From positions 48,168 to 112,167 of the forward strand of contig CAYYIJ010000001.1 of the NCBI GenBank assembly GCA_964471945.1: DNA of 64,000 nucleotides. The letters run 5' to 3'. Below the pieces are notes generated by a model. The model saw only the letters and a program-made list of their open reading frames with translations, did not search any database and was not told where the DNA came from. Source of the DNA: an uncultured Chlorobiaceae bacterium (GTDB lineage: Bacteria > Bacteroidota > Ignavibacteria > UBA10030 > SZUA-254). The position numbers were made by a program, and so were the translations under genes. This document shows positions 1,794-49,368 of this stretch, piece after piece (the first letter of the stretch is position 1; each line of letters begins with the position of its first letter).

Positions 1794-4700
1794 CTATTTG
1801 ATAATTAGCCAAGTAATCAGTTCAAAGTCGTCTTCAACCTTGGGTAACTGGTCTTCGTCAATCAATCTTCCACCTCTGCCCTCTAATTGCATTTCATTTC
1901 GTCTGTCAAGCAAAGATGCAATATTGCTCACTGCCTTTTGCATCATACCAGAATACAAATCCATTTTCTTACCCTCGTCAGTTTCTTCATTAAATAATCT
2001 ACACAATTCTTCCAAATATTCTTTCCTGCCTGAGCATAAAAGTCGGAACATTTCTAAGATTTGTTTTGGGTGTGTAAAACTAAAACGCACATCACCGTTG
2101 TTTCGTACATACACGAGATAATATGGTTGCAATGGATTTACCTTTTCAGTTGCTTTAGCATCTTCTTTTTGTTTCAAACAAAATATAACTCCTGGCTGCA
2201 ATACATCTTTCGCTTTTTCTGTAAGGTTTAAGCTCTCAACTTCTTTTGATGTAAGTGCATATATCCCAAAAAGTGCATCGTCCAATTTATCTTTGTTCTC
2301 TTGTAGATAATTAATCAGGTCAATACGAAAATCATCCAATGTAAATTCACTCAACGAGGGAATATTTTCGTTGAGGTCATCCATTTCTAATACTTCATCT
2401 TTCATCCTTAACAACTGTTTATCACGATAACGTAATTCTGTTTCTACCAAATCTTTTATTTCATCAGGATTTAATACATTATCTTCATGCGTTGCGGTTA
2501 CATCTACCAGTGCCATCCGTGCCTCAACACGATATTTCAGTTTGATATATTTGTCTAAGTTTGGCGTAGGCCAAAAGTTTACCAAATGAATCTTATCGTT
2601 CAGCGAACCGATGCGGTCAATTCTACCAAATCGCTGAATTACTCTGACTGGATTCCAGTGAATGTCATAGTTAATAAGGTAATCGCAATCCTGTAAATTC
2701 TGTCCTTCACTTATGCAGTCTGTTGCTATCAAAATATCAATCTCACCTTCCTGAGGCATAGCTTCTTTTAATTTTTCTCTTTGCTTGGCGATCGGGCAAA
2801 AGTTGGTCAGGATATGATTATACTCAGTGAGTTCCTTAAAACCTTTCGGTTGAAAATTTGTTCTATTACCACCCGTCCCACCAGTAACCATAGCGGTATG
2901 TAAATTTAATTCTTGCATTGCCCTATCAGCAATATTGTCATAAAGGTACGATGCTGTATCAGCGAAGGCAGTAAATATCAAAACCTTTTTATTGAATTTA
3001 CCGTCACGATTTTTGGTCGGGTTGTTAGCTTTTTGTGAAATAAGGTATCTCAGTTTCTTAAGTTTTGCATCACGGTCAGGAGTTACTGCTTCTGCATTAT
3101 CACGTAATAAGCTCAACTGTTCTTTGTCTTTTTTTAAGTCCTTAAGCCAGTTGTCAAGATGCAAATGTTTTAATTCGTATCTAAGTTTCTTACCAACTGT
3201 GTAAAGCTCATTGTATTCTTCGTCTTCTTCTCCTTCCATTTTTGTATCATCTAAATCAAATTCAGAGTCTTCGGCTTTCTTTTTTAGGTAATCTTTTATT
3301 TTTATTTCAAGTGCTTCGATTTTACTTACACATCGTTGCATTGTAATTTCAAATGATTCAACTGAACTTTCCAACCGTTTCAAAAAATTTACTTTCATCA
3401 TTCCAATCAAAAACTCTTCACGGTCTTCCTGCTTAAACACAGCCGCACCGATTGATTGTGCTTTCTCAGAATAATGTTGCTTAAATTCTTGTTTTACATA
3501 AGAAGATGGTTTGAATAATGATAATTCATATTTTTCGATTTCATCTTGTAATCTATCATAAGAAAGGAAGCTACCCTTAAGGTCAATGTCGCTGTAAATA
3601 GGGTGTGGTTTCCCTCTGTCAGGGAATAAACCAATTTTTTCCATCTCGTGGCGATAATATTTCTTTATGTGATTACGTGAGCGAGATATTGTAAGTTCAT
3701 CGAGTAACTTGAACAATGCACTATCTAATTTGTCAAGAAGTTCCTTGCTGCTGATTGCTTCTCTTTGTTTTTGCTTTGCCCAATGAGTGAATTGAGTTTG
3801 TGCAAGTTTTAAAGTTTCAGAAAAACTTTTTATTTGCAGTGTTTCTGTGAAAGCTTTATCATTATCATCTGTGATGATGCGTATTTGATTACGTAAATCC
3901 TTAAGGTTAGTGTTTACTGGTGTTGCTGAAAGTAATAATACTTTTGTTTTAACACCCGAACCAATAATATCCTGTAGTAATCTTTCGTAACGGCTCTTTC
4001 GTATAATTTTTTCATCTTCATCCTTTTTTCCTTTTGTGTCGTTACGAAAATTATGGCTTTCATCAATTACGACTAAATCGAAAGCTCCCCAGTTAAACTC
4101 TGCTAACTTTATCCCGTCTGCATCTGAAGTACCGGTAATCCGACTTAAATCTGTATGATATAATACTGTATATGAAAAGCGGTCTTTAGTGAAAGGATTT
4201 AATATATTCCCCTTGTGTGCTTGATATACTGTCCAATTGTCTTTTAACTTTTTCGGACAAATCACTAATACACGGAAGTTCTTAAGTTCAAAATATTTGA
4301 TAATTGCAAGTGCTTCATAGGTTTTACCTAAGCCAACACTATCGGCAATGATACAGCCATTGTGTCGATTAATTTTATTTATCGCTGACTTAACAGCATC
4401 CTTTTGAAAATCGAACAATGTGTTCCAGATTTGAGTATCCTTAAGCGTTCCACCTTCAGTTAGTAGGTCTGCTGATTTTTGCTTTTCTATAAAATCGTAG
4501 AAAAGATGATAAAGAGTTTTGTAATAGATAAATTCAGGTGAATAATCATGATATAGTTGTTTAAGATATTGAAGTACTTCATCTTTCACATCTTCTACCT
4601 CAACACCATCCATTTCATTGTTCCATAACTTAGTGAACCATAATCTTAAATCTTCTCTATCACGTTTGCTGTCTACTTCCAGATTCAGTTCGATGTTTTT

Positions 4701-5171
4701 ATAGGTTGATAATCCCAGTCCCCTAACAGTGAAGTTTGAACTTCCTATAATAGCATCCTCTATACCGTTATTGTTGATATGATAGAGTTTGCCATGAAGA
4801 AAATTAACTTTTTTTACTGAACGAATTTCAACTTTCTTTTCAATCCAATCCGAACATTCTCTTGCAATACGGTTTTGCTCAAGTACATTCACAAGTTCAA
4901 TATTTTCATCTTGAATCATGAATGCTTTCTTAGATGCTTTAGATGGGTCGAGGGATTTGGTAAAACTTGGGTCACCATATAAAAACCGAAGTGAATTGAT
5001 TTGTCCCAATTCATTTTTCAATGCTTCATAAGCATAAATAGTGAAAAATGCAGAAACGACAGACATGTCACTCCCCGGTTTGATTTTTCCCTTTAAGAAA
5101 TCACCTACAGAACCATGCTGATGATTGTCTTTTATGGAAGATAAATTTCTTTCTCTTGATGTATCAGCCAT
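1794..5171 (-). CDS. Fusion protein: N-terminal PLD-like (HKD) nuclease domain + SNF2/Rad54-family helicase + ~300-aa uncharacterized C-terminal domain.
   Basis: 1125 aa. HKD-like motif LHGKLYHINNNGIEDAIIGSSNFT near the N-terminus. SNF2 motifs: SVGLGKT (I), VVIDESHNFRN (II), LLLSATPVNTNLKDL (III), ILIATDCISEGQNLQ...HWNPVRVIQRFGRIDRIGS (V/VI). Confidence 0.85.
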   Translation of the reverse strand: MADTSRERNLSSIKDNHQHGSVGDFLKGKIKPGSDMSVVSAFFTIYAYEALKNELGQINSLRFLYGDPSFTKSLDPSKASKKAFMIQDENIELVNVLEQNRIARECSDWIEKKVEIRSVKKVNFLHGKLYHINNNGIEDAIIGSSNFTVRGLGLSTYKNIELNLEVDSKRDREDLRLWFTKLWNNEMDGVEVEDVKDEVLQYLKQLYHDYSPEFIYYKTLYHLFYDFIEKQKSADLLTEGGTLKDTQIWNTLFDFQKDAVKSAINKINRHNGCIIADSVGLGKTYEALAIIKYFELKNFRVLVICPKKLKDNWTVYQAHKGNILNPFTKDRFSYTVLYHTDLSRITGTSDADGIKLAEFNWGAFDLVVIDESHNFRNDTKGKKDEDEKIIRKSRYERLLQDIIGSGVKTKVLLLSATPVNTNLKDLRNQIRIITDDNDKAFTETLQIKSFSETLKLAQTQFTHWAKQKQREAISSKELLDKLDSALFKLLDELTISRSRNHIKKYYRHEMEKIGLFPDRGKPHPIYSDIDLKGSFLSYDRLQDEIEKYELSLFKPSSYVKQEFKQHYSEKAQSIGAAVFKQEDREEFLIGMMKVNFLKRLESSVESFEITMQRCVSKIEALEIKIKDYLKKKAEDSEFDLDDTKMEGEEDEEYNELYTVGKKLRYELKHLHLDNWLKDLKKDKEQLSLLRDNAEAVTPDRDAKLKKLRYLISQKANNPTKNRDGKFNKKVLIFTAFADTASYLYDNIADRAMQELNLHTAMVTGGTGGNRTNFQPKGFKELTEYNHILTNFCPIAKQREKLKEAMPQEGEIDILIATDCISEGQNLQDCDYLINYDIHWNPVRVIQRFGRIDRIGSLNDKIHLVNFWPTPNLDKYIKLKYRVEARMALVDVTATHEDNVLNPDEIKDLVETELRYRDKQLLRMKDEVLEMDDLNENIPSLSEFTLDDFRIDLINYLQENKDKLDDALFGIYALTSKEVESLNLTEKAKDVLQPGVIFCLKQKEDAKATEKVNPLQPYYLVYVRNNGDVRFSFTHPKQILEMFRLLCSGRKEYLEELCRLFNEETDEGKKMDLYSGMMQKAVSNIASLLDRRNEMQLEGRGGRLIDEDQLPKVEDDFELITWLIIK

Positions 5172-6448: not shown

Positions 6449-6475
6449 TCTGGATTGCTGATATAAAAAAACTAC

Positions 6476-6886
6476 TCAGGTCAGCTTCACCAATAGTTCT
6501 TCAAGAAATCTTTTAATCTCAACCATATCATTCCTCAAACGATTCTCAGTCGTTTTTTGTTGTTGTGTCGGCGTTGAGGGTGCCGTTGTGGTTACACCTT
6601 CGTGTATCAACTCTAATTGTTCACCTGTTTCACTATCGGGCATATAATCTTTGAGAACCTGTTTAGCTCCTTCAATCGTATACCGTTCTTCACGCAGTAA
6701 TCTTTTTATGAACAAAATGAGTTTAATATCCTTGCTCGTATATATACGGTTACCCGCTCTATTTTTTGCAGGTCCAAGTTGCTCAAATTCCGATTCCCAG
6801 TACCGGAGTACATATTGTTCAAGGTCAGCAATTTTACTAACCTCACTGATTGAATAATACAGCTTCTTTATTCCTAATTGTTTCAT
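6476..6886 (-). CDS. MerR-family transcriptional regulator.
   Basis: N-terminal HTH YYSISEVSKIADLEQYVLRYWE is typical of MerR. 136 aa. Confidence 0.7.
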   Translation of the reverse strand: MKQLGIKKLYYSISEVSKIADLEQYVLRYWESEFEQLGPAKNRAGNRIYTSKDIKLILFIKRLLREERYTIEGAKQVLKDYMPDSETGEQLELIHEGVTTTAPSTPTQQQKTTENRLRNDMVEIKRFLEELLVKLT

Positions 6887-9620: not shown

Positions 9621-10907
9621 TTGAAGTTCAAATCAATCAAAGGTACACAGGATGTACTCCCCGATGATAGTTATCGTTGGCAGTTTGTTGAACAGAAAAT
9701 CCGCTCGGTAATGCATAGGTTCAACTACCGTGAAATTCGTACTCCAGTGTTCGAAGAAACAGCCTTATTTGCACGCGGTATTGGTGAATTAACAGATATC
9801 GTTAAGAAAGAAATGTACACTTTTCAGGATAGAGGTGGAACTATGCTGACATTGAAACCTGAAATGACCGCAGCGGTTATGCGTTCCTATCTCCAACATA
9901 ACATGGGTGAACGAAAACCATTAATTAAAGTATATTATATCGCACCGATGTTCCGCCAGGAAAGACCGCAAGCCGGACGCCTTAGGCAATTTCACCAATT
10001 TGGTGCCGAAGCTATTGGCGGAAGCAATCCTTTTGTCGATGCCGAAATTATAGCATTGTCTGCCGAAGTTTACCGGGTACTCGAGGTAAAAAACTTTCAG
10101 ATTAAAATTAACTCGGTCGGTTGTTTAAATTGCCGCCCGATTTATAAAGAAATTCTGAAGAAAAATCTACATAGTGTTTTTGAGCACTTATCAGAAGATA
10201 GCAAGCGGCGATTCGAGCAAAATCCGTTACGAATACTTGACTCGAAAGATGAAAATGATCAGAAGCTTACTAAGAATGTTCCATTGATCAAGGATTATTT
10301 ATGCAAAGAATGTTCAGCACATTTCATCGAACTTCAATCAACTTTAAGATCATTGAATATTGAATTTGAAATCGATGGCAGAATTGTTCGGGGTTTAGAT
10401 TATTACACTAAAACAGCATTCGAAATCATCAGTAAAGACTTGGGATCACAGGATGCATTGGTTGGTGGTGGTCGATACGATCTTTTATTAAAAGAACTTG
10501 GTGGCAAACCAACACCATCTGTCGGATTTGCGGCTGGTGTAGAACGTCTTCTGCTAACGATGGAGAAACAGCAATTATTTGCCGGAGTAAATAACAAGCC
10601 GAAGGTTTTTATTGCTGCGGTTGATGAAGAGGGAAGAAGATACGCAATGGTACAGGCGATCATGTTGCGACGCAATAACATTCCGTGCGAAGTCGATTTG
10701 CTTGGGCGAAGCCTAAAATCACAAATGCGAGAAGCAGACCGGCAAGAGGTAGAATTTGTTATTATCATCGGCGGTCATGAGCTTGAAAAAGAGATTGTCA
10801 TTATTAAGAATATGAAAAATGGAATACAAACAAACCTTGCGGCGAAGGATTTAATTGGCTATTTTCAAGAAACGGAGGAAAAAATTGAAACGGGGGGAAT
10901 CCGTTAA
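9621..10907 (+). CDS. hisS: Histidine--tRNA ligase.
   Basis: 428 aa. Class II aaRS motifs and HisRS-typical N-terminus KGTQDVLPDDSYRWQFVEQKIRSVMHRFNYREIRTPVFE, plus an anticodon-binding C-terminal domain. Confidence 0.9.
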   Translation: MKFKSIKGTQDVLPDDSYRWQFVEQKIRSVMHRFNYREIRTPVFEETALFARGIGELTDIVKKEMYTFQDRGGTMLTLKPEMTAAVMRSYLQHNMGERKPLIKVYYIAPMFRQERPQAGRLRQFHQFGAEAIGGSNPFVDAEIIALSAEVYRVLEVKNFQIKINSVGCLNCRPIYKEILKKNLHSVFEHLSEDSKRRFEQNPLRILDSKDENDQKLTKNVPLIKDYLCKECSAHFIELQSTLRSLNIEFEIDGRIVRGLDYYTKTAFEIISKDLGSQDALVGGGRYDLLLKELGGKPTPSVGFAAGVERLLLTMEKQQLFAGVNNKPKVFIAAVDEEGRRYAMVQAIMLRRNNIPCEVDLLGRSLKSQMREADRQEVEFVIIIGGHELEKEIVIIKNMKNGIQTNLAAKDLIGYFQETEEKIETGGIR

Positions 10908-12166: not shown

Positions 12167-13087
12167 GTGAAATTTATGAATTCTGAAATAAAAAATACTT
12201 ACAATTCGTATTATGACCGACAACGTACCCGTCCTTCACCATTGCGTGTTGTTCATGACCGTAAACCCACTGCAAATATCATTGCAGGTCGCAATCCAGT
12301 AATCGAAGCTTTACGGGCGGGAACGATAATCGAAAAAATTGTTATTCTTGCTGGTGTCAAAGGATCTTCTATAGAAAAAATTAAACAATTGGCAAAAAAT
12401 AACCGGATAAATTTTGTTGAAGTCGGTAAAATTAAATTCCGTGAACTGGTTAGTGACACTACAACTCAAGGAGTCGTAGCAATTGTTGGCACAAAAAAAT
12501 ATGTTGAAATTTCAGATATCCTGAAAATAGCTGAGAAGCGTAACGAAAACCCATTTATTTTATTATTGGATGAGATCGAAGATCCACAGAACTTAGGGGC
12601 ACTAATTCGAACAGCAGAATGTGCTGGTGTGCATGGCGTTGCCATCTCGAAACACCATGCAGCTTCGGTAAACCAAACTGTTGCAAGAACCTCGGCGGGG
12701 GCAAGTGAACATTTACCAGTTGCTAAAGTAACTAATATAGTGAATACAATAGATGAATTGAAGAAAAAAGGTGTTTGGGTGGTTGGAACTGATTCGAAGG
12801 CGGACAAACTTTATACCGAGATTGATTACACCGGACCGATTGCCGTTGTTGTTGGGAGCGAGGGGAAAGGAATCCGTACTTTGGTAAAAGAAAAATGTGA
12901 CTTTATGGTAAAAATCCCAATACGCGGTAAAATTCCCTCTCTGAACGCTTCTGTTGCCGGCGGTCTTTTGATGTATGAAGTTGTAAGGAAACAAGAAATG
13001 AAGGATAGTCAGGATACAATTTTAATTCCAGACAATAATGAACTATCATCCGATGAAGGGAACAACTCTGATTCTGAGAATATCTAA
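12167..13087 (+). CDS. rlmB: TrmH/SpoU-family rRNA 2'-O-methyltransferase (RlmB-like) with an acidic C-terminal tail.
   Basis: SpoU MTase motifs LLLDEIEDPQNLGALIRTAECAGV, VVGSEGKGIR and SLNASVAGGLLMYE, plus an N-terminal substrate-binding domain. Confidence 0.8.
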   Translation: MKFMNSEIKNTYNSYYDRQRTRPSPLRVVHDRKPTANIIAGRNPVIEALRAGTIIEKIVILAGVKGSSIEKIKQLAKNNRINFVEVGKIKFRELVSDTTTQGVVAIVGTKKYVEISDILKIAEKRNENPFILLLDEIEDPQNLGALIRTAECAGVHGVAISKHHAASVNQTVARTSAGASEHLPVAKVTNIVNTIDELKKKGVWVVGTDSKADKLYTEIDYTGPIAVVVGSEGKGIRTLVKEKCDFMVKIPIRGKIPSLNASVAGGLLMYEVVRKQEMKDSQDTILIPDNNELSSDEGNNSDSENI

Positions 13088-13163
13088 TTTTTTATTTTTT
13101 ATATATTTTTTTTAGTATTTTGTTGTGTTAAAATCGTCCAGAAAATTTATAGGTTACGGATAA

Positions 13164-13781
13164 TTGCAATTCATTGTTAGCTTCGTAATAGGTTATGTAA
13201 TCGGTTCTTTTCCGACTGCATATCTAATTGTTAGACATCAAGCTCACCTCGATATTCGTTTGGCTGGAAGTGGTAATGTCGGAGCAAGAAATGTATATGA
13301 GGTTACAAGCTCGAAATTACTGGGACTAATAGTACTTCTAATAGATTTGTTAAAAGGTGGAGCGTCAATATTTTTAACGTACCTAATTTATGGTTGTCAT
13401 TATTGGATTTTAGGAGTTGCCGGAATTGGCTCGGTTCTCGGACACAATTATTCTCCCTGGTTGCAATTTAAAGGTGGCCGCGGACTTTCCACAACTGCAG
13501 GTGTGATGCTATTACTCGGTTGGATTTATATTGTAATATGGTTGCTGATTTACTTTACAACAAATCGATTAAGCAAAAATATTCATCTTTCAAGCATTAT
13601 CGCAACCATTGTCAGCCCCATTTTAATCCTTTTGACTGTGGAACCTTTGAGAGCATCAATTATGTTTTCTCAAATTGAGATTATGGATTTATTCCTTTTA
13701 TGTTTGATACTCAGCTCTTTAATATTATTAGCACATATTGAGCCACTGAAAGAACTTATTCGAAAACGAAATGAAAAATAA
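13164..13781 (+). CDS. plsY: Glycerol-3-phosphate acyltransferase PlsY.
   Basis: GSGNVGARN and GHNYSPWLQFKGGRG motifs; polytopic membrane protein. Confidence 0.85.
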   Translation: MQFIVSFVIGYVIGSFPTAYLIVRHQAHLDIRLAGSGNVGARNVYEVTSSKLLGLIVLLIDLLKGGASIFLTYLIYGCHYWILGVAGIGSVLGHNYSPWLQFKGGRGLSTTAGVMLLLGWIYIVIWLLIYFTTNRLSKNIHLSSIIATIVSPILILLTVEPLRASIMFSQIEIMDLFLLCLILSSLILLAHIEPLKELIRKRNEK

Positions 13782-14643
13782 ACTTGATAATCTAGAATTA
13801 AAAGATATGTCGCGTCAGATACGGCGTGATGTAATCAAAATGTTGATGATATCTAAGTCAGGTCACTCTGGAGGACCACTTGGCTTGGCTGAAGTATTTG
13901 CAAGTTTCTACTTCAATATCCTGAATATTGATCCACAAAACCCCAAATGGGAAGATAGAGATTATTTCTTTTTGTCGGCTGGTCATCTTTGTCCAGCGTG
14001 GTATGCAACGCTTGCACGAAGAGGATATTTTCCATTGAGCGAATTAACAACTCTTCGAAAAATAAATACCAGATTGCAAGGACATCCCGCTCCTGCTCAT
14101 ACTCATGGTGTACCGGGAATTGAAATTGCTTCCGGCGCACTCGGACAAGGTTTATCTGTTGCAGTCGGTTGCGCTCTTGGTGTACGACTTGATAAAAAAA
14201 CAAACAGAGTTTATGTCTTGCTTGGTGATGGCGAGCTTGATGAAGGACAAATCTGGGAAGCAGCCATGACCGCAGGTCATCATAAAGTAGATAATCTCAT
14301 TGCGATAGTTGATAGGAATGATTGTCAGATTGATGGACGTACGATGAATGTTATGAATCTTGAACCGCTTGTCGAGAAGTGGAAAGCATTTAACTGGCAT
14401 GTCCTAGAATGTAATGGAAATGATGTTAATGAATTTGTCGGGACAGTCAAACTTGCTCAAGAGTTAAGAGGGAAACCAACAGTTATTATAACACGTACAT
14501 TTATGGGTAACGGAGTTTCGTTCATGCACGATGATTACAAATGGCATGGTGTGCCACCCAATGAAGAACAAGGCAAGCGAGCATTATCTGAATTACCTCT
14601 GACAAAGTTTGGAGATTTTGTAACATTTGATTGGGAGAATTAA
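13771..14643 (+). CDS. Transketolase, N-terminal (TPP-binding) subunit.
   Basis: SGHSGGPLG, GHP...GIEIASGALGQGLS and LLGDGELDEGQIWEA motifs. Ends where full-length transketolases continue. Confidence 0.9.
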   Translation: MKNKLDNLELKDMSRQIRRDVIKMLMISKSGHSGGPLGLAEVFASFYFNILNIDPQNPKWEDRDYFFLSAGHLCPAWYATLARRGYFPLSELTTLRKINTRLQGHPAPAHTHGVPGIEIASGALGQGLSVAVGCALGVRLDKKTNRVYVLLGDGELDEGQIWEAAMTAGHHKVDNLIAIVDRNDCQIDGRTMNVMNLEPLVEKWKAFNWHVLECNGNDVNEFVGTVKLAQELRGKPTVIITRTFMGNGVSFMHDDYKWHGVPPNEEQGKRALSELPLTKFGDFVTFDWEN

Positions 14644-14702
14644 ATTGGAATGATGGATTAATGGAATGTTGAACTAGGAATATTTAAATATCGGTTTAAA
14701 AT

Positions 14703-14963
14703 ATGGAAATTAAACTAGATAAACATATTATCGAACAAATGATAAAACGTGGAACTAATGAAAACGAGATTATGGAAGTGTTGAACGAAGCTGTTGAGTG
14801 TGATGCAAAATATGATAGAAAAAGAAAATCGAAAATTTTTCATTATAACACGTTTTGGTGCGGAAAATATTATAGACAAAAGAAAGTGGAGGTTATCTAT
14901 AAGTATGAAGGTAATCAAATAATTACTATAACAGTTTATGTATACTACGGAGAATGGAAATGA
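14703..14963 (+). CDS. DUF4258-family small protein (putative toxin of a TA-like pair).
   Basis: 86 aa. DKHIIEQMIKRG...ITITVYVY pattern is typical of DUF4258. Overlaps the next gene by 10 bp. Confidence 0.65.
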   Translation: MEIKLDKHIIEQMIKRGTNENEIMEVLNEAVECDAKYDRKRKSKIFHYNTFWCGKYYRQKKVEVIYKYEGNQIITITVYVYYGEWK

Positions 14964-15169
14964 AAATTTATTATAATCCCAAGGATGATCTCCTCAGAAT
15001 CACCTTAAAGGAAAGTAAGGAAGTCAGAAATGAAAGATATAATGACGATATCGTATTTGACGTCGACAAAGAAGATAAAGTCGTCGGGATCGAAATTTTT
15101 GATGCAGCAAAATATCTCGAGATCGGTGATTTATTAAGTGTTACTCTTGTTCAAGAAAAATTGGCATAA
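14954..15169 (+). CDS. DUF2283-family small protein (putative antitoxin partner).
   Basis: 71 aa. KIYYNPKDDLLRI...VVGIEIFDA is typical of DUF2283. Confidence 0.7.
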   Translation: MEMKIYYNPKDDLLRITLKESKEVRNERYNDDIVFDVDKEDKVVGIEIFDAAKYLEIGDLLSVTLVQEKLA

Positions 15170-15172
15170 TCA

Positions 15173-16141
15173 ATGGCAAAATTTCAAATCAAAGAACATA
15201 AAGCCACACGACTCGGCTTCGGTGAAGCACTTGTAGAGTTGGGTCACGAGAATCCGAATGTTGTAGTTCTCGGAGGAGACGTTACTGGTTCAGTTCGAAC
15301 AGATTTATTCATGAAAGCTTTTCCCGATCGGTTCTTCAGTGTCGGAATAGCAGAACAAGACATGATGGGAACAGCGGCAGGACTTGCGATTGCGGGAAAG
15401 ATTCCATTCGCATCTGCGTATGGTGTGTTTGCGACAGGAAGACCTTTCGATCAAATTCGTCAATCAATTGCATACAGTCAGATTCCAGTTAAGATTTGTG
15501 CATCTCACTGCGGAATAACTGTCGGACAAGATGGCGCAACTCATCAATCACTCGAAGATATCGCACTTATGCGTGCGCTACCGCATATGACAATTGCCTC
15601 GCCGTGCGATTATCATCAAGCAAAAAAAATGGTGAAAGGTTCAATCAATTGGAATCATCCGATTTATATCAGATTCTTCAGAGATAACTCACTTGTGTTC
15701 ACCGATCCATCCGCTACATTTGAATTTGGAAAAGCTGATACACTCATCGATGGTTCTGATGTAACGATAATCGCATGTGGATTACAAGTTTGGGAATCTA
15801 TTCTTGCCGAAGAAATGCTTGAGAAGGAAGGAATCAGTGCTCGCGTAATCGACATGCATACAATCAAACCATTGGATGCAGATGCAATTTTAAAAGCCGC
15901 CAAAGAAACAGGCGCCATTGTAACTGCAGAAGATCATCAGAAACATGGAGGTCTCGGCAGTGCAGTAGCTGAATACCTTTCACAACATTATCCAACACCG
16001 CAAGAGTTTGTTGCAATCAATGATACATTCGGAGAATCTGGTTTAGGTGATGAGTTGATGAAGAAATATGGAATTGATAAAGAAGCAATTGTCAAAGCTG
16101 TACACAAAGTTATTGAAAGAAAGAAAAACAAAAGATTTTGA
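15173..16141 (+). CDS. Transketolase, C-terminal (pyrimidine-binding + C-terminal domain) subunit.
   Basis: 322 aa. GIAEQDMMGTAAGLA and the Tkt C-terminal domain. Confidence 0.9.
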   Translation: MAKFQIKEHKATRLGFGEALVELGHENPNVVVLGGDVTGSVRTDLFMKAFPDRFFSVGIAEQDMMGTAAGLAIAGKIPFASAYGVFATGRPFDQIRQSIAYSQIPVKICASHCGITVGQDGATHQSLEDIALMRALPHMTIASPCDYHQAKKMVKGSINWNHPIYIRFFRDNSLVFTDPSATFEFGKADTLIDGSDVTIIACGLQVWESILAEEMLEKEGISARVIDMHTIKPLDADAILKAAKETGAIVTAEDHQKHGGLGSAVAEYLSQHYPTPQEFVAINDTFGESGLGDELMKKYGIDKEAIVKAVHKVIERKKNKRF

Positions 16142-16147
16142 AGGAGA

Positions 16148-17359
16148 TTGAACATGAAGAAGTTATTAATTTTATTGACGATAATTATTTTGCCGCTGGC
16201 AGTCGGATTTGGATTAGGATATGGAGTTGGACATAAAAGTTTTGCACCAAATACGAATGATAGTTTCAATATGGATGAACAGCTTTCTACAGCATCCTAT
16301 ACACAAGCTAACCGTGACAGCTTCAATGAACAGATTACTGTCGGTCGTCAAAATGCAATTACACGGGCTGTTGGATTTGCAAGTCCGGCTGTAGTTGGAA
16401 TTAACGTAACAGAAGTTCGTGAATATCGTTATCATAACCCTTGGTCGCGTATGTTCGGCGATGATCCATTTTTTCGACAGTTCTTTGGAGATAGAACTTA
16501 TCGACAAGAAGTCAAAGGTCTTGGATCGGGTTTTATAATTTCACCTGATGGGTATGTCTTAACAAACGACCACGTTGCCGGCAACGCATCAAAAATTACA
16601 ATCACACTAACTAACAAAGAAAAATATGAAGCCGAATTGATCGGCACTGATTTAGTTTCCGATATTTCTTTATTGAAAATTAATGGAAAAGATTTGCCAT
16701 ATATAAAACTTGGCAATTCAGATGATGTAATCATTGGTGAATGGGTTATCGCGATGGGAAATCCGTTCGGTCTTTTCGAAATTGCGGATAAGCCGACTGT
16801 TACTGTTGGAGTAGTGAGTGCAACTGGAATGAATCTCAATGCTGAAGGTGGACGAATTTATCGCGGTATGATTCAAACTGATGCTGCAATCAACCAGGGA
16901 AATAGCGGTGGTCCATTATTGAACTCTGCCGGTGAAGTAATCGGTGTAAACGCAGTTATATACACACCGAACCAAGGTAACATTGGTCTCGGTTTTGCAA
17001 TTCCCATCAATCGAGTGAAGGACATTGTTGCTGAGTTGAAAAGAAGCGGTAAAATTGAAAGAAATTTCTGGACAGGGCTTGAAGTGCAAACCGTTGATGC
17101 ACGTGTTGCAAGATATTTCGATTTAGATAAAGCAGAAGGTGTTATTGTTACCGATGTTAAACGCCGAAGTCCAGCCGATGAAAGCGGTTTTAAACCGGGT
17201 GATATCATCATCGATGTTAACGGTGAAAAGATTATAAATGAAAATGCAATCGTCTCTATTGTTAGAACATCGAAAGCGGGAGATTTGTTGAAAATGAAAG
17301 TGATTCGTGATAAGAAAATTATTAATTTAAGTCTAAGATTAGAAAAACAACCGTCATGA
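16148..17359 (+). CDS. HtrA/DegP-family periplasmic serine protease with PDZ domain.
   Basis: Signal/TM N-terminus, catalytic triad context [18 protein letters not shown] ... GNSGGPLLN, and a C-terminal PDZ domain. Confidence 0.9.
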
Positions 17360-18651
17360 TAAATCGCTATACGCGTCCAGAAATGGGAAAAATCTGGACG
17401 GAAGAAAATAAATTCCAAACTTGGCTCCATATTGAGATTCTCGCTTGTGAAGCGCAGGCAGAGCTTGGGGTGATTCCGAAAGAAGCTGTCAAAGTTATTC
17501 GCGAGAAAGCCAAGTTCGATGTTAAACGGATCGATGAAATTGAAGCTCAGGTAAAACACGATGTAATCGCTTTTCTGACGAATGTCGGAGAATACGTTGG
17601 ACCAGAATCCCGCTTCATTCATCTCGGTATGACTTCCTCAGATATTATTGATACTGGAATCGCACTTCAGATGAAACAATCCGGCGATTTGCTTTTAAAG
17701 GATTTGACTGAGTTGAAAGATATCCTCGCGAACCGAGCAAAGGAACATAAGTACACCATCATGATCGGCAGGACGCACGGTATTCATGCCGAGCCGATAA
17801 CTTTTGGTTTGAAGCTTGCTCTTTGGTATGATGAAACTCGTCGCAACATCAAGCGGCTTGAACAGGCAAAGGAAAATATTTCTTATGGACAAATCTCAGG
17901 AGCCGTTGGCACTTACGAACATCTTGATCCATTTGTTGAAAGATATGTTTGTGAAAAATTAGGATTGAAGCCTGCACCAATCTCGACTCAGATTCTTCAG
18001 CGGGATCTTCATGCTGAATTTCTTACAACACTTGCAATAATCGGAAGTTCTTTAGAAAAATTTGCAACAGAGATTCGTCATTTACAAAAGACCGAAATAC
18101 TTGAAGCGGAAGAATTTTTTTCAAAAGGACAAAAGGGCTCATCTGCAATGCCGCACAAGCGAAATCCGGTAAATTGCGAACGTGTAGCTGGATTAGCAAG
18201 AGTTCTTCGAGGAAACGCTCAGGCTGCGATGGAAAATATTTCACTCTGGCACGAACGGGATATCTCACATTCATCGGCAGAGAGAGTTATAATTCCCGAT
18301 AGCTGTACCCTCCTCGATTTTATGATTTCAGAATTCACGAACATCACCGACAAGCTCATTGTGTATCCCGAGAACATGATGAAGAACATCGAGCTTACAC
18401 ACGGACTCATTTTCTCGCAAGAAGTTCTACTCGCATTAACGAAGAAAGGTATGACACGTGAAGATGCATATTCTGCTGTACAGAAATACGCAATGGAAGT
18501 GTGGCAGAACAAAAAGAATTTTAAAGAAGTTTTGAAATCTGATTCCAATATTACGAAGTATTTGGGCGGCAGTGAGATTGACGAGTTGTTTGATTTGGAG
18601 AAAAGTATTCGTAATGTAGATTATATTTTTAAAAGAGTTGGATTAATGTAA
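17356..18651 (+). CDS. purB: Adenylosuccinate lyase.
   Basis: 431 aa. Fumarate-lyase signature [11 protein letters not shown], PurB-typical N-terminus, and the ADSL C-terminal domain. Confidence 0.9.
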
Positions 18652-20526: not shown

Positions 20527-21822
20527 GTGACTAAAATGCTTATAGAATTTACAGTTGAAAATTTCAGATCAATTAAGGGAAGACAAACCTTATCACTGCT
20601 CTCGTCTGGTAAAGTTAGTGAACATCCAGAAAATTTAATTATTACTAAAGATAACCTCAGGGTAAATAAATCTACAATTATTTATGGGCGTAATGCATCA
20701 GGTAAAACTAATTTCTTGATGGCGATGAAAGCACTCGAATTTCTAGTAAGAAGGTCTGTTCATTTTAAAATAGATCAAGAGATACAACCATATGAACCGT
20801 TTAAGCTAGATAAAAACTCAAGTGACAAACCGATCAGTTTGGAAATCGATTTTATCGCAAAAGATAATGTTAGGTACAAATACTCGGTATCATTTTCAAA
20901 ATCTGAAATAATTCATGAATCGTTATTTTATTATCCGAAGGGTCAACCTGCTAAGCTGTTTATGAGGGAAAACAAAAAACCTATTATTTTTGGTACGTCA
21001 ATAAAAGGTGATAGACGCAGTGTTGAGAAACAATTATTGAGTAATCAACTTTTTCTATCCAAGGGAGCAAACAGTAACATTGAACAACTAAAAATACCTT
21101 ATCTTTTTTTTAATAAATACATTTTTGCAAGAATTTATAGTGATTTTGATTTTGATGATTCTCTTATCAATAGTTATACAAGAGCTATTGCAGAAAAAAA
21201 AGATACAAAGTTAAAAGAAAATCTTGATAAGTTGATAAGGATTGCTGATACAGGTATCTCATCTATTATAGTTAATGAAGTAGCGGTTGATAAAATAAAA
21301 TTCCCGGACGGTTTATCGGAGGATGCTAAAAGGCGAATAATAGATAGAAATAAGTATGAGATAAAAACAATTCATAAAATCTATAATGAAGGCATTACAT
21401 CAGGTGAAATCACTTTTGACTTACATGATGAATCAATGGGCACAATAAAATTATTAGCAGTAGGTGGAATGATTCTCGATGCTTTAAGTGATGGTACTGT
21501 TTTAATCATCGATGAATTAGATAAAAGTTTACACCCATTGTTAACCCGTGTACTAATAAAGTTATTCCATAACTCCATAACTAATCCCAACAATGCACAG
21601 CTAATATTTGCGACTCACGATGTCTCCCTTATGGATAAGGAGTTATTTAGACGAGATCAAATCTGGTTTACCGAGAAGGAAATTGATGGGGCTACGAAGC
21701 TATATTCGCTATCAGATATAAAAGGAGTTCGGAAAGAATATTCATATGAAAAATGGTATCTGAGTGGGAGATTCGGTGGTACACCGGTTATCAACGAACA
21801 CGAGTTGATATCTAGTTTTTAA
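20527..21822 (+). CDS. AAA_21/ABC-type ATPase, AbiLi-like (OLD-family-like ATPase without a nuclease domain).
   Basis: Walker A GRNASGKTN, Walker B LIIDELDKSLHP, H-loop IFATHD. Lower GC than flanking genes. Confidence 0.8.
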   Translation: MTKMLIEFTVENFRSIKGRQTLSLLSSGKVSEHPENLIITKDNLRVNKSTIIYGRNASGKTNFLMAMKALEFLVRRSVHFKIDQEIQPYEPFKLDKNSSDKPISLEIDFIAKDNVRYKYSVSFSKSEIIHESLFYYPKGQPAKLFMRENKKPIIFGTSIKGDRRSVEKQLLSNQLFLSKGANSNIEQLKIPYLFFNKYIFARIYSDFDFDDSLINSYTRAIAEKKDTKLKENLDKLIRIADTGISSIIVNEVAVDKIKFPDGLSEDAKRRIIDRNKYEIKTIHKIYNEGITSGEITFDLHDESMGTIKLLAVGGMILDALSDGTVLIIDELDKSLHPLLTRVLIKLFHNSITNPNNAQLIFATHDVSLMDKELFRRDQIWFTEKEIDGATKLYSLSDIKGVRKEYSYEKWYLSGRFGGTPVINEHELISSF

Positions 21823-21823
21823 T

Positions 21824-22441
21824 ATGGCTAATCGACTCAGACAAAATAAAATTCTACCCCTTAGAAAAAGGGGACTGATTCTATGTGAAGGAAAAACAGA
21901 AATAAGTTACTTCAATGGATTGAAACATGACGAGATGGTTAGAAGGCGTCTTTCTGCAATAGATATTTACATCGGTCAGCCCTCAAATTACTCACCACTA
22001 GGTCTTGTGAAAGAGGCTAAGGAGAGAAAAAAACAAGCTATAAGGGAAAAGAATCACTATGATTTTGTGTGGTTGGTGTTTGATAGGAATGGTCATGATA
22101 AAGTACCAGAAGCATTCAATATGGCACATTCAAATAAAATTAAAATTGCTTTTTCGGTTAGGTGTTTTGAGTTTTGGTTCTTATTACATTTCACTCAATC
22201 GCTAAAACCATATACGAAATGCGATGAATTAATTCATGAATTGAAAAAGAAATATCATCGTTATGATGGCTCTATCAATCACTATGAAGAATTGAAAGCT
22301 CAAACCTTGACTGCAATAAGTAATGGTGCCTGGGTAATCAAGCAAAATCAAAATGATATAGACAGGGGTACACCTTTGTACGATTTAAATGCTTATACTG
22401 ACGTACATCTACTCGTGGAGTATTTACTTAATTTGTCATAA
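21824..22441 (+). CDS. RloB-family protein, AbiLii-like partner.
   Basis: N-terminal LILCEGKTEISYF matches the RloB signature (ILIVCEGEKTEPNYF). Starts 2 bp after the ATPase stop. Confidence 0.7.
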   Translation: MANRLRQNKILPLRKRGLILCEGKTEISYFNGLKHDEMVRRRLSAIDIYIGQPSNYSPLGLVKEAKERKKQAIREKNHYDFVWLVFDRNGHDKVPEAFNMAHSNKIKIAFSVRCFEFWFLLHFTQSLKPYTKCDELIHELKKKYHRYDGSINHYEELKAQTLTAISNGAWVIKQNQNDIDRGTPLYDLNAYTDVHLLVEYLLNLS

Positions 22442-47233: not shown

Positions 47234-49368
47234 AGAAAATATTTCATGATAACATTTCACTCTTTTTTATTATTTTCGTCGGTGCATTGCTTCGCATCTG
47301 GTATATTAATTGGGGGCTACCCGATTTGTATGAAGAAGCAATACCTCTTAGTATCTCGTGGAGATTCTGGAATATTGGAAACCCAGGTTATCAGTTCGAC
47401 CCGAACTTTTTTACATATCCTGCATTCACTTTTTATTTGCAATTTCTGATTCAAAACATTCATTATTTAATCGGAAATATTATCGGTGTTTATCCAAGTC
47501 TCGCCTCGTTTTTACAGGCATTCGAGCAAGATTCATCGGCTGTCATCATTATTGCCCGTTCGACTTCAGTGTTATTTGATATCACAACTATCATAATCGC
47601 CTATAAATTGATTTCTTCCATTGTAGATAAAAGAACCTCCATCCTCGCAGCATGTCTTCTTGCTTTGAATCCTCTTCATATTAAACAGGCACACTTTGTA
47701 AATGTCGATACACCACTAACATTCTTTGTTTTATTATCACTTTATTTCATAATAAAGCTGATGAAAGATCAATCACTCAGAAATTATATTGGCGCCGGGA
47801 TAAGTATTGGATTGGCAGCATCAACAAAATATAATGGTGCTATACTGCTTGCCGTTCTTATTCTCGCTCAAATGCTCCAGTCCGATTCCATGCGCAATTT
47901 AATAAAAACACTTACTCAGCCACGTTTTCTACTATCAGGAATAACATCCATTATAGTCTTTATCCTTTGCAATCCATATATCATACTTCGGATGAATAAA
48001 TTCCTAAGCGATTTCGGTGAAGTCCAACGGCACATGGAAATCGGACACCTCGGCGTAGATCAAACAACCAGCACAATCGACTACTATATTCTGGAAGCAC
48101 TTCCCGCTTACCTGAGTTGGATATTATTGATAATTTGTTGCGTAACCATTTATATTTTCTTTAAAAAGAAAGAGACAACCCAGATTGTGTTATCTATATT
48201 TCCAATATTGTATCTCATAATTATAGGTCGATGGGAGATGCGGGCAGATAGATATATCTTCCCCGCAATACCTATCCTGATTTTAATTGGCTCAATCGGT
48301 GTTATGAGATTATGGGACATTTTTCAAAAATATTTATCGAACCAACACTCGAAAGTTTATCAATCAAAAATATTCAAGTCAATTGTAGTTTTTATCGGAT
48401 TATTTATTTTACTTATTCAACCGGTAGTGAGTAATTATAAATATCTTTATCCATTAGGTTTACCCGATACACGTGCGATAGCGAAAAAATGGATAAGTGA
48501 TAACCTCCCACCCGGGTCTGTGATCGCGACCGGTCCATACGGTGTTGAGTTCCCTAGAGAAAACAAATACTTAATGTTCCGAATTCCTTACCTGTCGTAT
48601 GAAACAGAGTTAGCCGCACCATTTTACGATACGCGTTGGTACGAAGACCTCGACTTGCTTATTGCTTCCGATTATGATTATGGAAGATTTCGCATGGAGC
48701 CAAAACGTTATGGAGAATTTTTAGGATATTATGATACATTACGCACACACTGGAGGTCTGCTTTAATCCTTCAGCCTGATGAAGAAAAAACAGGCCCAAC
48801 AATATGGCTTTATACTTGTCCTGATTCATTAAAACGGTCGAAGTTCGATCCAACAATGTTCCAACGATTCCATGATAATCCAGAGAGTACTAGAATAAGT
48901 AATTTCTTGAAAGGACTTAACACAATTCTTTTCAAAAGAGGAAAGCTCGAGAAGTGTGAGCAAATCCTGAATGAGATTTTAGTTGTTGAAGTTGAAAATA
49001 TTACTATGAGAAATCAACTTGCACAAGTACTTTTTGATCTCGGTAGATATGAACAGTCGCTTGTTCAATTAGGTCTTTCTATCCAGTATAAACCAGATCA
49101 ATCGCACGTTTACGTATTAGCAGGACGTTCATTATTGAAATTAAATAAAGTGAAAGAAGCAGAAGGTGTTTTTCACAAAACAATTACGATAGATAATCGA
49201 TTAGCAGCCCCTTACCTTGAACTAATACAACTCTACACGATACAAAATGAAAAATTAAAATTATTCGATATACTCAAACGATATTTAGCAATATTGTCAC
49301 CGAAGAGCCAAGAAGCAAACGAAGTAAAGAAGCAAATAAAAGAATTGGACCCAAGCAGAAAGAACTAA
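47230..49368 (+). CDS. Family 39/83 (PMT/ArnT-like) glycosyltransferase with C-terminal TPR domain (paralog).
   Basis: 712 aa, ~50-55% identical to 45083-47233 by eye over the N-terminus. ATGA start/stop overlap. Confidence 0.7.
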   Translation: MKKIFHDNISLFFIIFVGALLRIWYINWGLPDLYEEAIPLSISWRFWNIGNPGYQFDPNFFTYPAFTFYLQFLIQNIHYLIGNIIGVYPSLASFLQAFEQDSSAVIIIARSTSVLFDITTIIIAYKLISSIVDKRTSILAACLLALNPLHIKQAHFVNVDTPLTFFVLLSLYFIIKLMKDQSLRNYIGAGISIGLAASTKYNGAILLAVLILAQMLQSDSMRNLIKTLTQPRFLLSGITSIIVFILCNPYIILRMNKFLSDFGEVQRHMEIGHLGVDQTTSTIDYYILEALPAYLSWILLIICCVTIYIFFKKKETTQIVLSIFPILYLIIIGRWEMRADRYIFPAIPILILIGSIGVMRLWDIFQKYLSNQHSKVYQSKIFKSIVVFIGLFILLIQPVVSNYKYLYPLGLPDTRAIAKKWISDNLPPGSVIATGPYGVEFPRENKYLMFRIPYLSYETELAAPFYDTRWYEDLDLLIASDYDYGRFRMEPKRYGEFLGYYDTLRTHWRSALILQPDEEKTGPTIWLYTCPDSLKRSKFDPTMFQRFHDNPESTRISNFLKGLNTILFKRGKLEKCEQILNEILVVEVENITMRNQLAQVLFDLGRYEQSLVQLGLSIQYKPDQSHVYVLAGRSLLKLNKVKEAEGVFHKTITIDNRLAAPYLELIQLYTIQNEKLKLFDILKRYLAILSPKSQEANEVKKQIKELDPSRKN

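Follow-up and report, generated by a model that had tools for sequence, protein, structure and literature searches.

We have analysed a 64,000-nucleotide stretch of DNA (the window; positions 48,168 to 112,167 of contig CAYYIJ010000001.1, assembly GCA_964471945.1) from an uncultured bacterium deposited under the name Chlorobiaceae, focusing on two small genes that lie between the two halves of its transketolase (viz. tktN and tktC). The transketolase is split, with Transketolase_N on one gene and Transket_pyr together with Transketolase_C on another, and 80 related loci, some of them from other phyla and archaea, have this division too. The small genes encode proteins of the families DUF4258 and DUF2283 and are referred to below as the genes for a predicted toxin and a predicted antitoxin, respectively. 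Both open reading frames (ORFs) lie exactly where an initial annotation of this DNA had put them, Pfam confirms each of its family assignments, and the motifs that it quoted are found in the first (HIIEQMIKRG...ITVY) and the second (KIYYNPKDD...GIEI) small ORF. Coordinates are collected in Table 1.

Both small proteins score above the gathering cut-offs of their families. The toxin matches DUF4258 (PF14076, which overlaps Ntox49) with 28.6 bits against a cut-off of 25 (residues 7–79 on profile positions 3–70 of 71), and the antitoxin matches DUF2283 (PF10049; COG5428, YuzE-like) with 48.9 bits against 23 (residues 4–51 on profile positions 1–48 of 49). The two genes had been described as overlapping by 10 bp, a figure that applies to the longest ORF. 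A 4 bp overlap is likelier, in which the sequence ATGA joins the antitoxin start to the TGA stop of the toxin gene, because the gene calls on two identical Logan contigs and all homologues place the start at the ATG at 14960 (MKIYY...). The in-frame ATG further upstream, at 14954, stems from the codon for the invariant Trp85 of the toxin.

All 60 aligned homologues of the toxin match PF14076, and their alignment contains 15 family-invariant residues (viz. H8, R16, G17, E22, K42, K60, E63, T75, T77, V78, Y79, V80, Y82, G83, and W85), every one of which is retained in the full-length toxin of the window. An AlphaFold2 model built from these 60 homologues (predicted local distance difference test 89.5; predicted template modelling score 0.79) shows two N-terminal helices (residues 7–15 and 20–29) followed by four antiparallel strands, and it structurally matches CdiA-CT and colicin E5 structures. 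This order of elements (pre-alpha, alpha, and beta1 to beta4) is the topology of the colicin-like branch within the BECR ribonucleases (RNases), which it defines and in which DUF4258 has been placed (bioRxiv 10.64898/2026.08.28.747851). The characterised members of this branch mostly cut transfer RNA (tRNA) and share a conserved pre-alpha His and conserved beta4 residues, the active site combining a His with Lys/Arg on these two elements (bioRxiv 10.64898/2026.08.28.747851). DUF4258 has also been listed among the BECR-fold toxin families of type II toxin-antitoxin (TA) modules (PMC11980606) and as a CdiA-CT toxin domain in E. coli, annotated as "tRNase (?)" (PMC11630599). The modelled fold suggests that the DUF4258 protein is probably an RNase, and likely a tRNase. 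Searches of PDB sequences with both single proteins and with the 60-sequence toxin profile returned only designed helical-repeat proteins and noise.

The predicted antitoxin of the window is acidic (isoelectric point 4.6; range 4.6–4.8 for the antitoxins examined), and its fold consists of a five-stranded beta domain with a C-terminal helix, for which the best structural match is CdiI of EC869. In the one paper found on DUF2283/YuzE, the family is described as a predicted antitoxin, with citation of UniProt O32096. The view that the two genes constitute a TA module agrees with the hallmarks that can be computed, but the accompanying statement that this pairing is widely predicted as such overstates the literature, which lists DUF4258 as a BECR toxin family that is still undescribed and DUF2283/YuzE as a predicted antitoxin.

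The two genes occur together far more widely than the transketolase locus. We have examined the 80 best metagenome loci of this DUF4258 subfamily, 77 of which were assessable, and a DUF2283 gene is present immediately downstream of the toxin in 75 of them (75/80, or 75/77 assessable); three of the remaining loci end at a contig edge and in two the toxin ORF is damaged or missing. The context is a tkt locus in one of the 80, and the other 79 are unrelated to tkt. The pair hence constitutes a conserved unit, toxin gene first and antitoxin gene second, which moves from one genomic context to another, and it exhibits both the adjacency or overlap of genes and the conserved pairing that are expected of type II TA systems. 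A profile search identified 1,467 proteins of the subfamily (86–94 amino acids (aa), about 50% identity) in Latescibacterota, Nitrospira, Thermodesulfovibrionales, Anaerolineae, Proteobacteria, and even Heimdallarchaeota bins, and an exhaustive search yielded 688 subfamily clusters at 50% identity; the best 150 representatives of the family are nearly all small stand-alone proteins (45–203 aa). Examples outside tkt loci adjoin GGDEF/pilin or cytochrome genes and are preceded by 168–320 bp of non-coding DNA, and in a rough survey of such copies the ORF-free space upstream had a median of about 134 bp (60 bp or less in 16/59). The cassette therefore usually has room for a promoter of its own, and the compact arrangement at tkt is the exception. 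In one unrelated metagenome contig (L118; 1856–2110 and 4760–6109), a cassette lies about 2.6 kb from a split transketolase on the opposite strand, which is probably a coincidence.

The junction between tktN and tktC was surveyed in 80 genome loci and additional contigs (L-numbers label the loci). The same DUF4258/DUF2283 cassette is found at this junction in the window, L005 and L083, and also in L021 and L169/L089, so that the two genes are present in the same order in at least five related species-level genomes; this recurrence, together with the low ratios of nonsynonymous to synonymous substitution (dN/dS) reported below, indicates that the small genes are not chance ORFs. A word-based search with the antitoxin found five orthologues only, all embedded in tkt loci, which indicates that the tkt-embedded cassettes form a subclade of their own. 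The distance from the antitoxin stop to the tktC start is 0–3 nt in three genomes of the window clade. The gap is empty or nearly so (-4 to 65 nt) in L003, L004, L006–L008, L010–L013, L015, L017, L019, L020, L022, L023, L055, and L074, and tktN and tktC abut in 11/11 split-tkt loci from outside the Ignavibacteria (other phyla and archaea). The initial annotation had proposed this comparison as a way of learning whether the insertion is strain-specific, and had held that the presence of the pair throughout the clade would suggest an accessory function. The insertion is neither strain-specific nor clade-wide, most Ignavibacteria junctions being empty, and it is instead old and vertically inherited.

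Insertions of more than 250 bp are present between tktN and tktC in 22/52 loci (a count that includes L031, which rests on a weak match), between plsY and tktN in 0/32, and between tktC and htrA in 6/74. The occupants of the tktN-tktC gap are diverse. A more distant clade of Ignavibacteria (14 loci, viz. L028–L030, L033–L041, L048, and L054; at about 4450–4940 in most) carries there a conserved gene for a PrcB-like lipoprotein of about 158 aa, whose N-terminus resembles a signal peptide/lipobox and which contains a PrcB_C domain (PF14343). L009 (2532–3035) contains a RelB-like antitoxin gene (PF18506, 33.6 bits) and a ParE_toxin gene (PF05016, 39.6 bits, full length), the latter broken by an in-frame stop at codon 53. 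In L083 (4365–4996), a second module located 5' of the DUF4258 pair consists of a 91 aa ORF without a family match and a 118 aa TumE toxin (PF20126, 78 bits; PADLOC PDC-M44B), and the four small genes are packed together with spacers of 0–14 nt.

The insertions between tktC and htrA include DUF2283-containing modules in L018 and L169. L018 has in this gap (2340–2900) a 105 aa ORF with weak PBECR2 similarity followed by DUF2283, and L169 has an orphan 75 aa DUF2283 gene at the same site (6456–6683) as well as a 79 aa ORF with DUF2283 after an aldehyde dehydrogenase gene (9723–10177). In hhalign comparisons, the DUF4258 profile showed no detectable similarity to either the 79 aa or the 105 aa partner.

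Adjacency of the transketolase genes is itself not universal in this class, as tktC occurs without a preceding tktN in L024–L027, L032, L042–L047, L049–L053, and L056–L071 (e.g., L065 3728–6008). These unlinked halves include the complete genome of Ca. Tepidiaquacella proteinivora, with two-component regulator genes upstream on the opposite strand. Coupling of the two halves is thus not essential, and their co-translation is no requirement in the class; coupling or polarity exerted by the cassette on tktC is nevertheless plausible, because the cassette is part of a tightly packed operon and ends 3 nt before tktC.

The history of the cassette was compared with a host tree based upon tktN, tktC, htrA, and purB (1,486 columns, 200 bootstraps). 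The window, L005, and L083 form a clade with 100% bootstrap support, to which L004, with an empty junction, is the sister (100%); L021 groups with L169 and L018, the latter two together, also at 100%, and many empty lineages lie between the two cassette-bearing clades. The identities among the cassettes track the host topology. The toxins of L005 and L083 are 92% identical, both are 64–65% identical to that of the window, and between the clades the values are 57–65%; the corresponding values for the antitoxins are 93, 83–84, and 65–72%, and the tktC proteins of the cassette hosts share 76–89% aa identity. Synonymous divergence is saturated in most cassette comparisons, and the three usable dN/dS values are 0.067 for the toxin and 0.105 for the antitoxin between L083 and L005, and 0.18 for the toxin between L021 and L169, which indicates that both genes of the cassette are under purifying selection. 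The G+C content at third codon positions (GC3) of the cassette genes (0.26 and 0.33) corresponds to that of the host genes (0.28–0.38), so that the low overall G+C content of the cassette reflects amino acid composition and gives no sign of recent import. The divergence of the cassettes between the clades is not below that of the host genes, which argues against recent transfer. These comparisons of sequences support an old and vertically inherited insertion; a strain-specific or recently mobile one is at odds with a cassette that has co-diverged with its hosts at species-level distances in two clades and has a host-like GC3.

The insertion, which had been expected to be stably maintained at this place, is not irreversible, in that most relatives are empty and L018 has cleanly lost the cassette. 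The tktC protein of L018 is 97% identical to that of L169, and because L018 is nested among cassette carriers, the 145-nt spacer that takes the place of the cassette (L018 1240–1384) is evidence of loss. This spacer contains an imperfect hairpin of about 90 nt (GTGTCATTTCGAG...TTCAGAATGACAC) that resembles repetitive extragenic palindromic (REP) sequences or miniature inverted-repeat transposable elements, with a weak fold z-score of -1.7. In L005, a -1 frameshift in a run of A (A6, versus A7 in L083) interrupts the toxin gene, and the antitoxin gene is intact. The cassette accordingly shows the patchy distribution, with decay or loss, that is expected of type II TA systems.

The cassette resides in a co-directional string of overlapping or nearly abutting genes (Table 1), in which the tktN start overlaps the plsY stop by 11 bp, 59 nt separate the tktN stop from the toxin start, and 3 nt separate the antitoxin stop from the tktC start; the plsY-tkt-htrA-purB order is kept in relatives. 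This string is probably one transcription unit that carries the cassette. No terminator-like site was found on the + strand in 13000–17500, sigma-70-like promoter matches in the operon region occur only at chance level, and the Bacteroidetes-type promoter pattern TTTG...TAnnTTTG does not occur near the cassette and shows no enrichment in the window. There are no Rfam families in 12900–16400, and the window has neither a second copy of either small gene nor a second tkt. Two TGGAWTRATGGA units (14646–14665) are found in the 59-nt spacer that precedes the toxin gene, and the same TGGAWTRATGGA-type repeat fills most of the 174-bp empty junction of the relative L014 (L014 919–1092), which suggests that the spacer is probably native and not cassette DNA; the motif is not enriched across the window as a whole. 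The exact pair is also present on one NCBI contig (137,725 bp) and in two Logan assemblies, and the locus is identical in the Logan runs SRR11582139/40. The closest genome matches to tktC are uncultured Ignavibacteria/Ignavibacteriales metagenome-assembled genomes (MAGs), with 86–87% aa identity, some of them mislabelled as Chlorobiaceae or Bacteroidota.

Table 1. Genes and features of the transketolase locus (positions in the window).
Feature	Positions	Strand	Remarks
plsY	13164–13781	+	ORF list; first gene of the string
tktN, N-terminal (thiamine pyrophosphate-binding) transketolase subunit	13771–14643	+	290 aa; Pfam Transketolase_N, 185 bits
AT-rich spacer between tktN and toxin gene	14644–14702	+	59 nt; G+C 0.25
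DUF4258 toxin gene (predicted RNase)	14703–14963	+	86 aa; Pfam DUF4258, 28.6 bits
DUF2283 antitoxin/immunity gene (predicted)	14960–15169	+	69 aa; 71 aa from alternative start 14954; 48.9 bits
tktC, pyrimidine-binding and C-terminal domain subunit	15173–16141	+	322 aa; Transket_pyr, 152 bits; Transketolase_C, 111 bits
htrA-like protease gene	16148–17359	+	ORF list, Pfam
purB	17356–18651	+	ORF list, Pfam
Co-directional string plsY-tktN-[toxin-antitoxin]-tktC-htrA-purB	13164–18651	+	Overlapping or near-abutting genes

A complete AbiL-type defence pair is located 4.4 kb downstream of the tkt cassette (20527–22441, + strand), in a stretch of low G+C content (0.27–0.33) immediately 3' of an aldehyde dehydrogenase gene. 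It consists of a 431 aa AAA_21 ATPase (PADLOC AbiLi, 308.6 bits) and, after a gap of 1 nt, a 205 aa protein (AbiLii, 76.7 bits).

On the basis of these results, we consider it likely (probability about 0.7) that the two genes form a type II-like TA cassette, in which a colicin-like BECR RNase is paired with a DUF2283 neutraliser, and which is an old insertion in the tkt operon that persists selfishly. The TA interpretation is suggested by the BECR fold, the acidic partner, the near-obligate pairing, the occurrence in many contexts and phyla, the patchiness, and the decay of the toxin first; the RNase activity and its target, the physical neutralisation, the addiction, and the co-transcription are what we infer. 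In the mechanism that we propose, the 86 aa DUF4258 protein would be a stand-alone colicin-like BECR ribonuclease that most likely cleaves tRNA, and the acidic 69 aa DUF2283 protein, made from the overlapping downstream gene, would bind and neutralise it. The cassette would have entered the tktN-tktC intercistronic gap in an ancestor of this Ignavibacteria lineage and have been transmitted vertically since then. Its transcripts would come from read-through of the host operon, and it would take no part in transketolase chemistry. As a selfish or addictive element it would persist and be lost only slowly, with the toxin decaying first and with occasional deletion.

A number of observations weigh against this interpretation. 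The DUF2283 antitoxin has no recognisable DNA-binding domain, although such a domain, with autoregulation of the operon, is canonical (but not universal) in type II systems, and in L083 and L021 the toxin is not a basic protein. DUF4258 is experimentally "undescribed in the literature" (PMC11980606), and our literature search found no paper on the DUF4258/DUF2283 pair and no experiments on any such pair. Membership of the toxin in the Colicin_E5 family (PF12106) was considered and rejected, as its score of 20.9 bits is below the cut-off of 25 and 1/60 homologues has a match. Neither protein matches a model in PADLOC, PHROGs, or NCBIfam, of which the gap in PADLOC and PHROGs counts here, and no relatives were found in IMG/VR viral contigs or PLSDB plasmids at the sensitivities used. 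Around the window copy there are no direct flanking repeats, terminal inverted repeats, or target duplication. The distribution over the host tree can be explained either by one ancient gain followed by about seven losses or by two gains, for which homologous recombination of the tkt genes on either side is a possible route. Lastly, the frameshift in L005, given the very low dN/dS of the remainder of the gene, is either of very recent origin or an error of assembly in a MAG of about 5x coverage.

The location of the cassette exactly between two subunit genes, its distance of 0–3 nt from tktC in three genomes, and its retention in two clades could be read as signs of an accessory of the split transketolase, viz. 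a factor that assembles or regulates the N and C subunits, or a translational spacer by which their stoichiometry is tuned. Such a function is highly improbable, and it is nearly excluded by the distribution: 79/80 metagenome homologues of the toxin, 75 of these 80 loci having DUF2283 directly downstream, are unrelated to tkt; the junction is empty in most Ignavibacteria and in all other sampled phyla; tktN and tktC are unlinked in many Ignavibacteria; and in other lineages this site is taken by unrelated TA families or by a lipoprotein gene. The fold of an RNase toxin likewise does not fit this explanation. An inactive or domesticated remnant, with a non-toxic protein in the window that is kept only because its precise removal from a place flanked by essential cistrons is rare or because the antitoxin is useful in anti-addiction, would accord with the dead toxins and intact antitoxins of L005 (frameshift) and L009 (ParE, stop codon), with the orphan DUF2283 genes in the L169 lineage, and with the faster evolution of the toxin (57–65% identity, versus 68–84% for the antitoxin). 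However, we regard this as quite improbable, as the window toxin is full length with all 15 invariant residues, toxin dN/dS values of 0.07–0.18 indicate purifying selection, the ATGA coupling has been kept, and L018 shows that clean deletion is possible.

Another explanation is that the pair is an anti-phage abortive-infection module, whose tRNase, restrained by the antitoxin, would be freed by infection or by a shut-off of host transcription and whose supply would be ensured by a constitutive operon. Among type II TA modules, many of those with BECR toxins are defensive (PMC11980606), the window has the AbiLi/AbiLii pair 4.4 kb downstream of the cassette, and a TumE module, with a toxin that matches PADLOC candidate PDC-M44B, also occurs at this junction. 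Nevertheless, neither protein of the cassette matches PADLOC, the cassette is found in a housekeeping operon and outside any defence island, it has co-diverged with its hosts over a long time without fast turnover, and no viral copies were found; hence, we consider a defensive role unlikely.

The type II-like TA cassette that we favour has two traits that are not textbook ones, viz. an antitoxin without a DNA-binding domain and a very tight chaining to tktC. A more speculative proposal, to which we also attach a low probability, is that the tktN-tktC gap serves as a lineage-wide dock for promoter-less TA cassettes, which would be expressed by, and translationally chained to, an essential operon, with tktC held hostage. 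As DUF2283 lacks a DNA-binding domain, it would then be the flux through the tkt operon, and not autoregulation, that determines the balance of toxin and antitoxin. If this is true, it would constitute a new mode of regulation and maintenance for TA modules and would give a reason for the convergence of four different cassette types on one junction.

The locus provides a natural series of intact, frameshifted, lost, and replaced states for a predicted TA family outside the usual model phyla. The compact 467-bp pair, with its confident fold model, is a good candidate for testing tRNase and immunity roles. For annotation, it is a warning that neither of the small genes belongs to the transketolase.

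The predicted toxin shares with colicin E5/ImmE5 and with CdiA-CT/CdiI (EC869, NC101, and Kp342) the pre-alpha helix, alpha helix, and four beta strands, and the His on the pre-alpha helix. However, those toxins are C-terminal domains of large proteins that are secreted or delivered against neighbouring cells, whereas the window toxin is an 86 aa cytoplasmic stand-alone protein. In this regard it resembles BrnT/BrnA of Brucella abortus (PDB 3u97), in which the toxin is also a small stand-alone BECR RNase encoded by the first gene. The two toxins belong to different Pfam families, viz. PF04365 (BrnT) and PF14076 (here). BrnA is a DNA-binding, autoregulating antitoxin, whereas DUF2283 shows no DNA-binding fold. 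The same toxin family and a predicted TA role are also found in the DUF4258-HicB pair of Synechocystis (slr1421/ssr2377; PMC4963859) and in DUF4258-MqsA fusions (PMC11980606), but here the antitoxin is DUF2283, without a helix-turn-helix, and the toxin gene comes first, versus the A/T order listed for the family.

The closest parallel at the level of the locus is provided by the intercistronic TA insertions of E. coli, viz. mazEF in relA-mazG, dinJ-yafQ in dinB-yafP, and ccdO157 at folA-apaH (PMC7167474; Mine et al., 2009). Other elements occupy the same loci there, such as parDE at relA-mazG in Salmonella and REP sequences at folA-apaH where O157 has ccd, and decay of ccdO157 is known in E. 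coli (PMC7167474). In both cases, a TA pair lies between cistrons of an operon that functions without it in relatives, one locus holds different elements (here DUF4258/DUF2283, RelB/ParE, TumE, and a hairpin-containing spacer), and toxins decay by nonsense or frameshift mutations. The present case differs in that it concerns Ignavibacteria, another TA family, and a host operon that encodes two halves of one enzyme, and in that the cassette has been kept across species-level divergence and is not strain-variable. By this analogy, the pattern at the junction (varied TA families, small repeats, and decay of the toxin first) appears to be exactly that described for E. coli, and the conclusion drawn there, that TA insertion loci are plastic and non-random, would extend to the Ignavibacteria, even between the halves of one enzyme.

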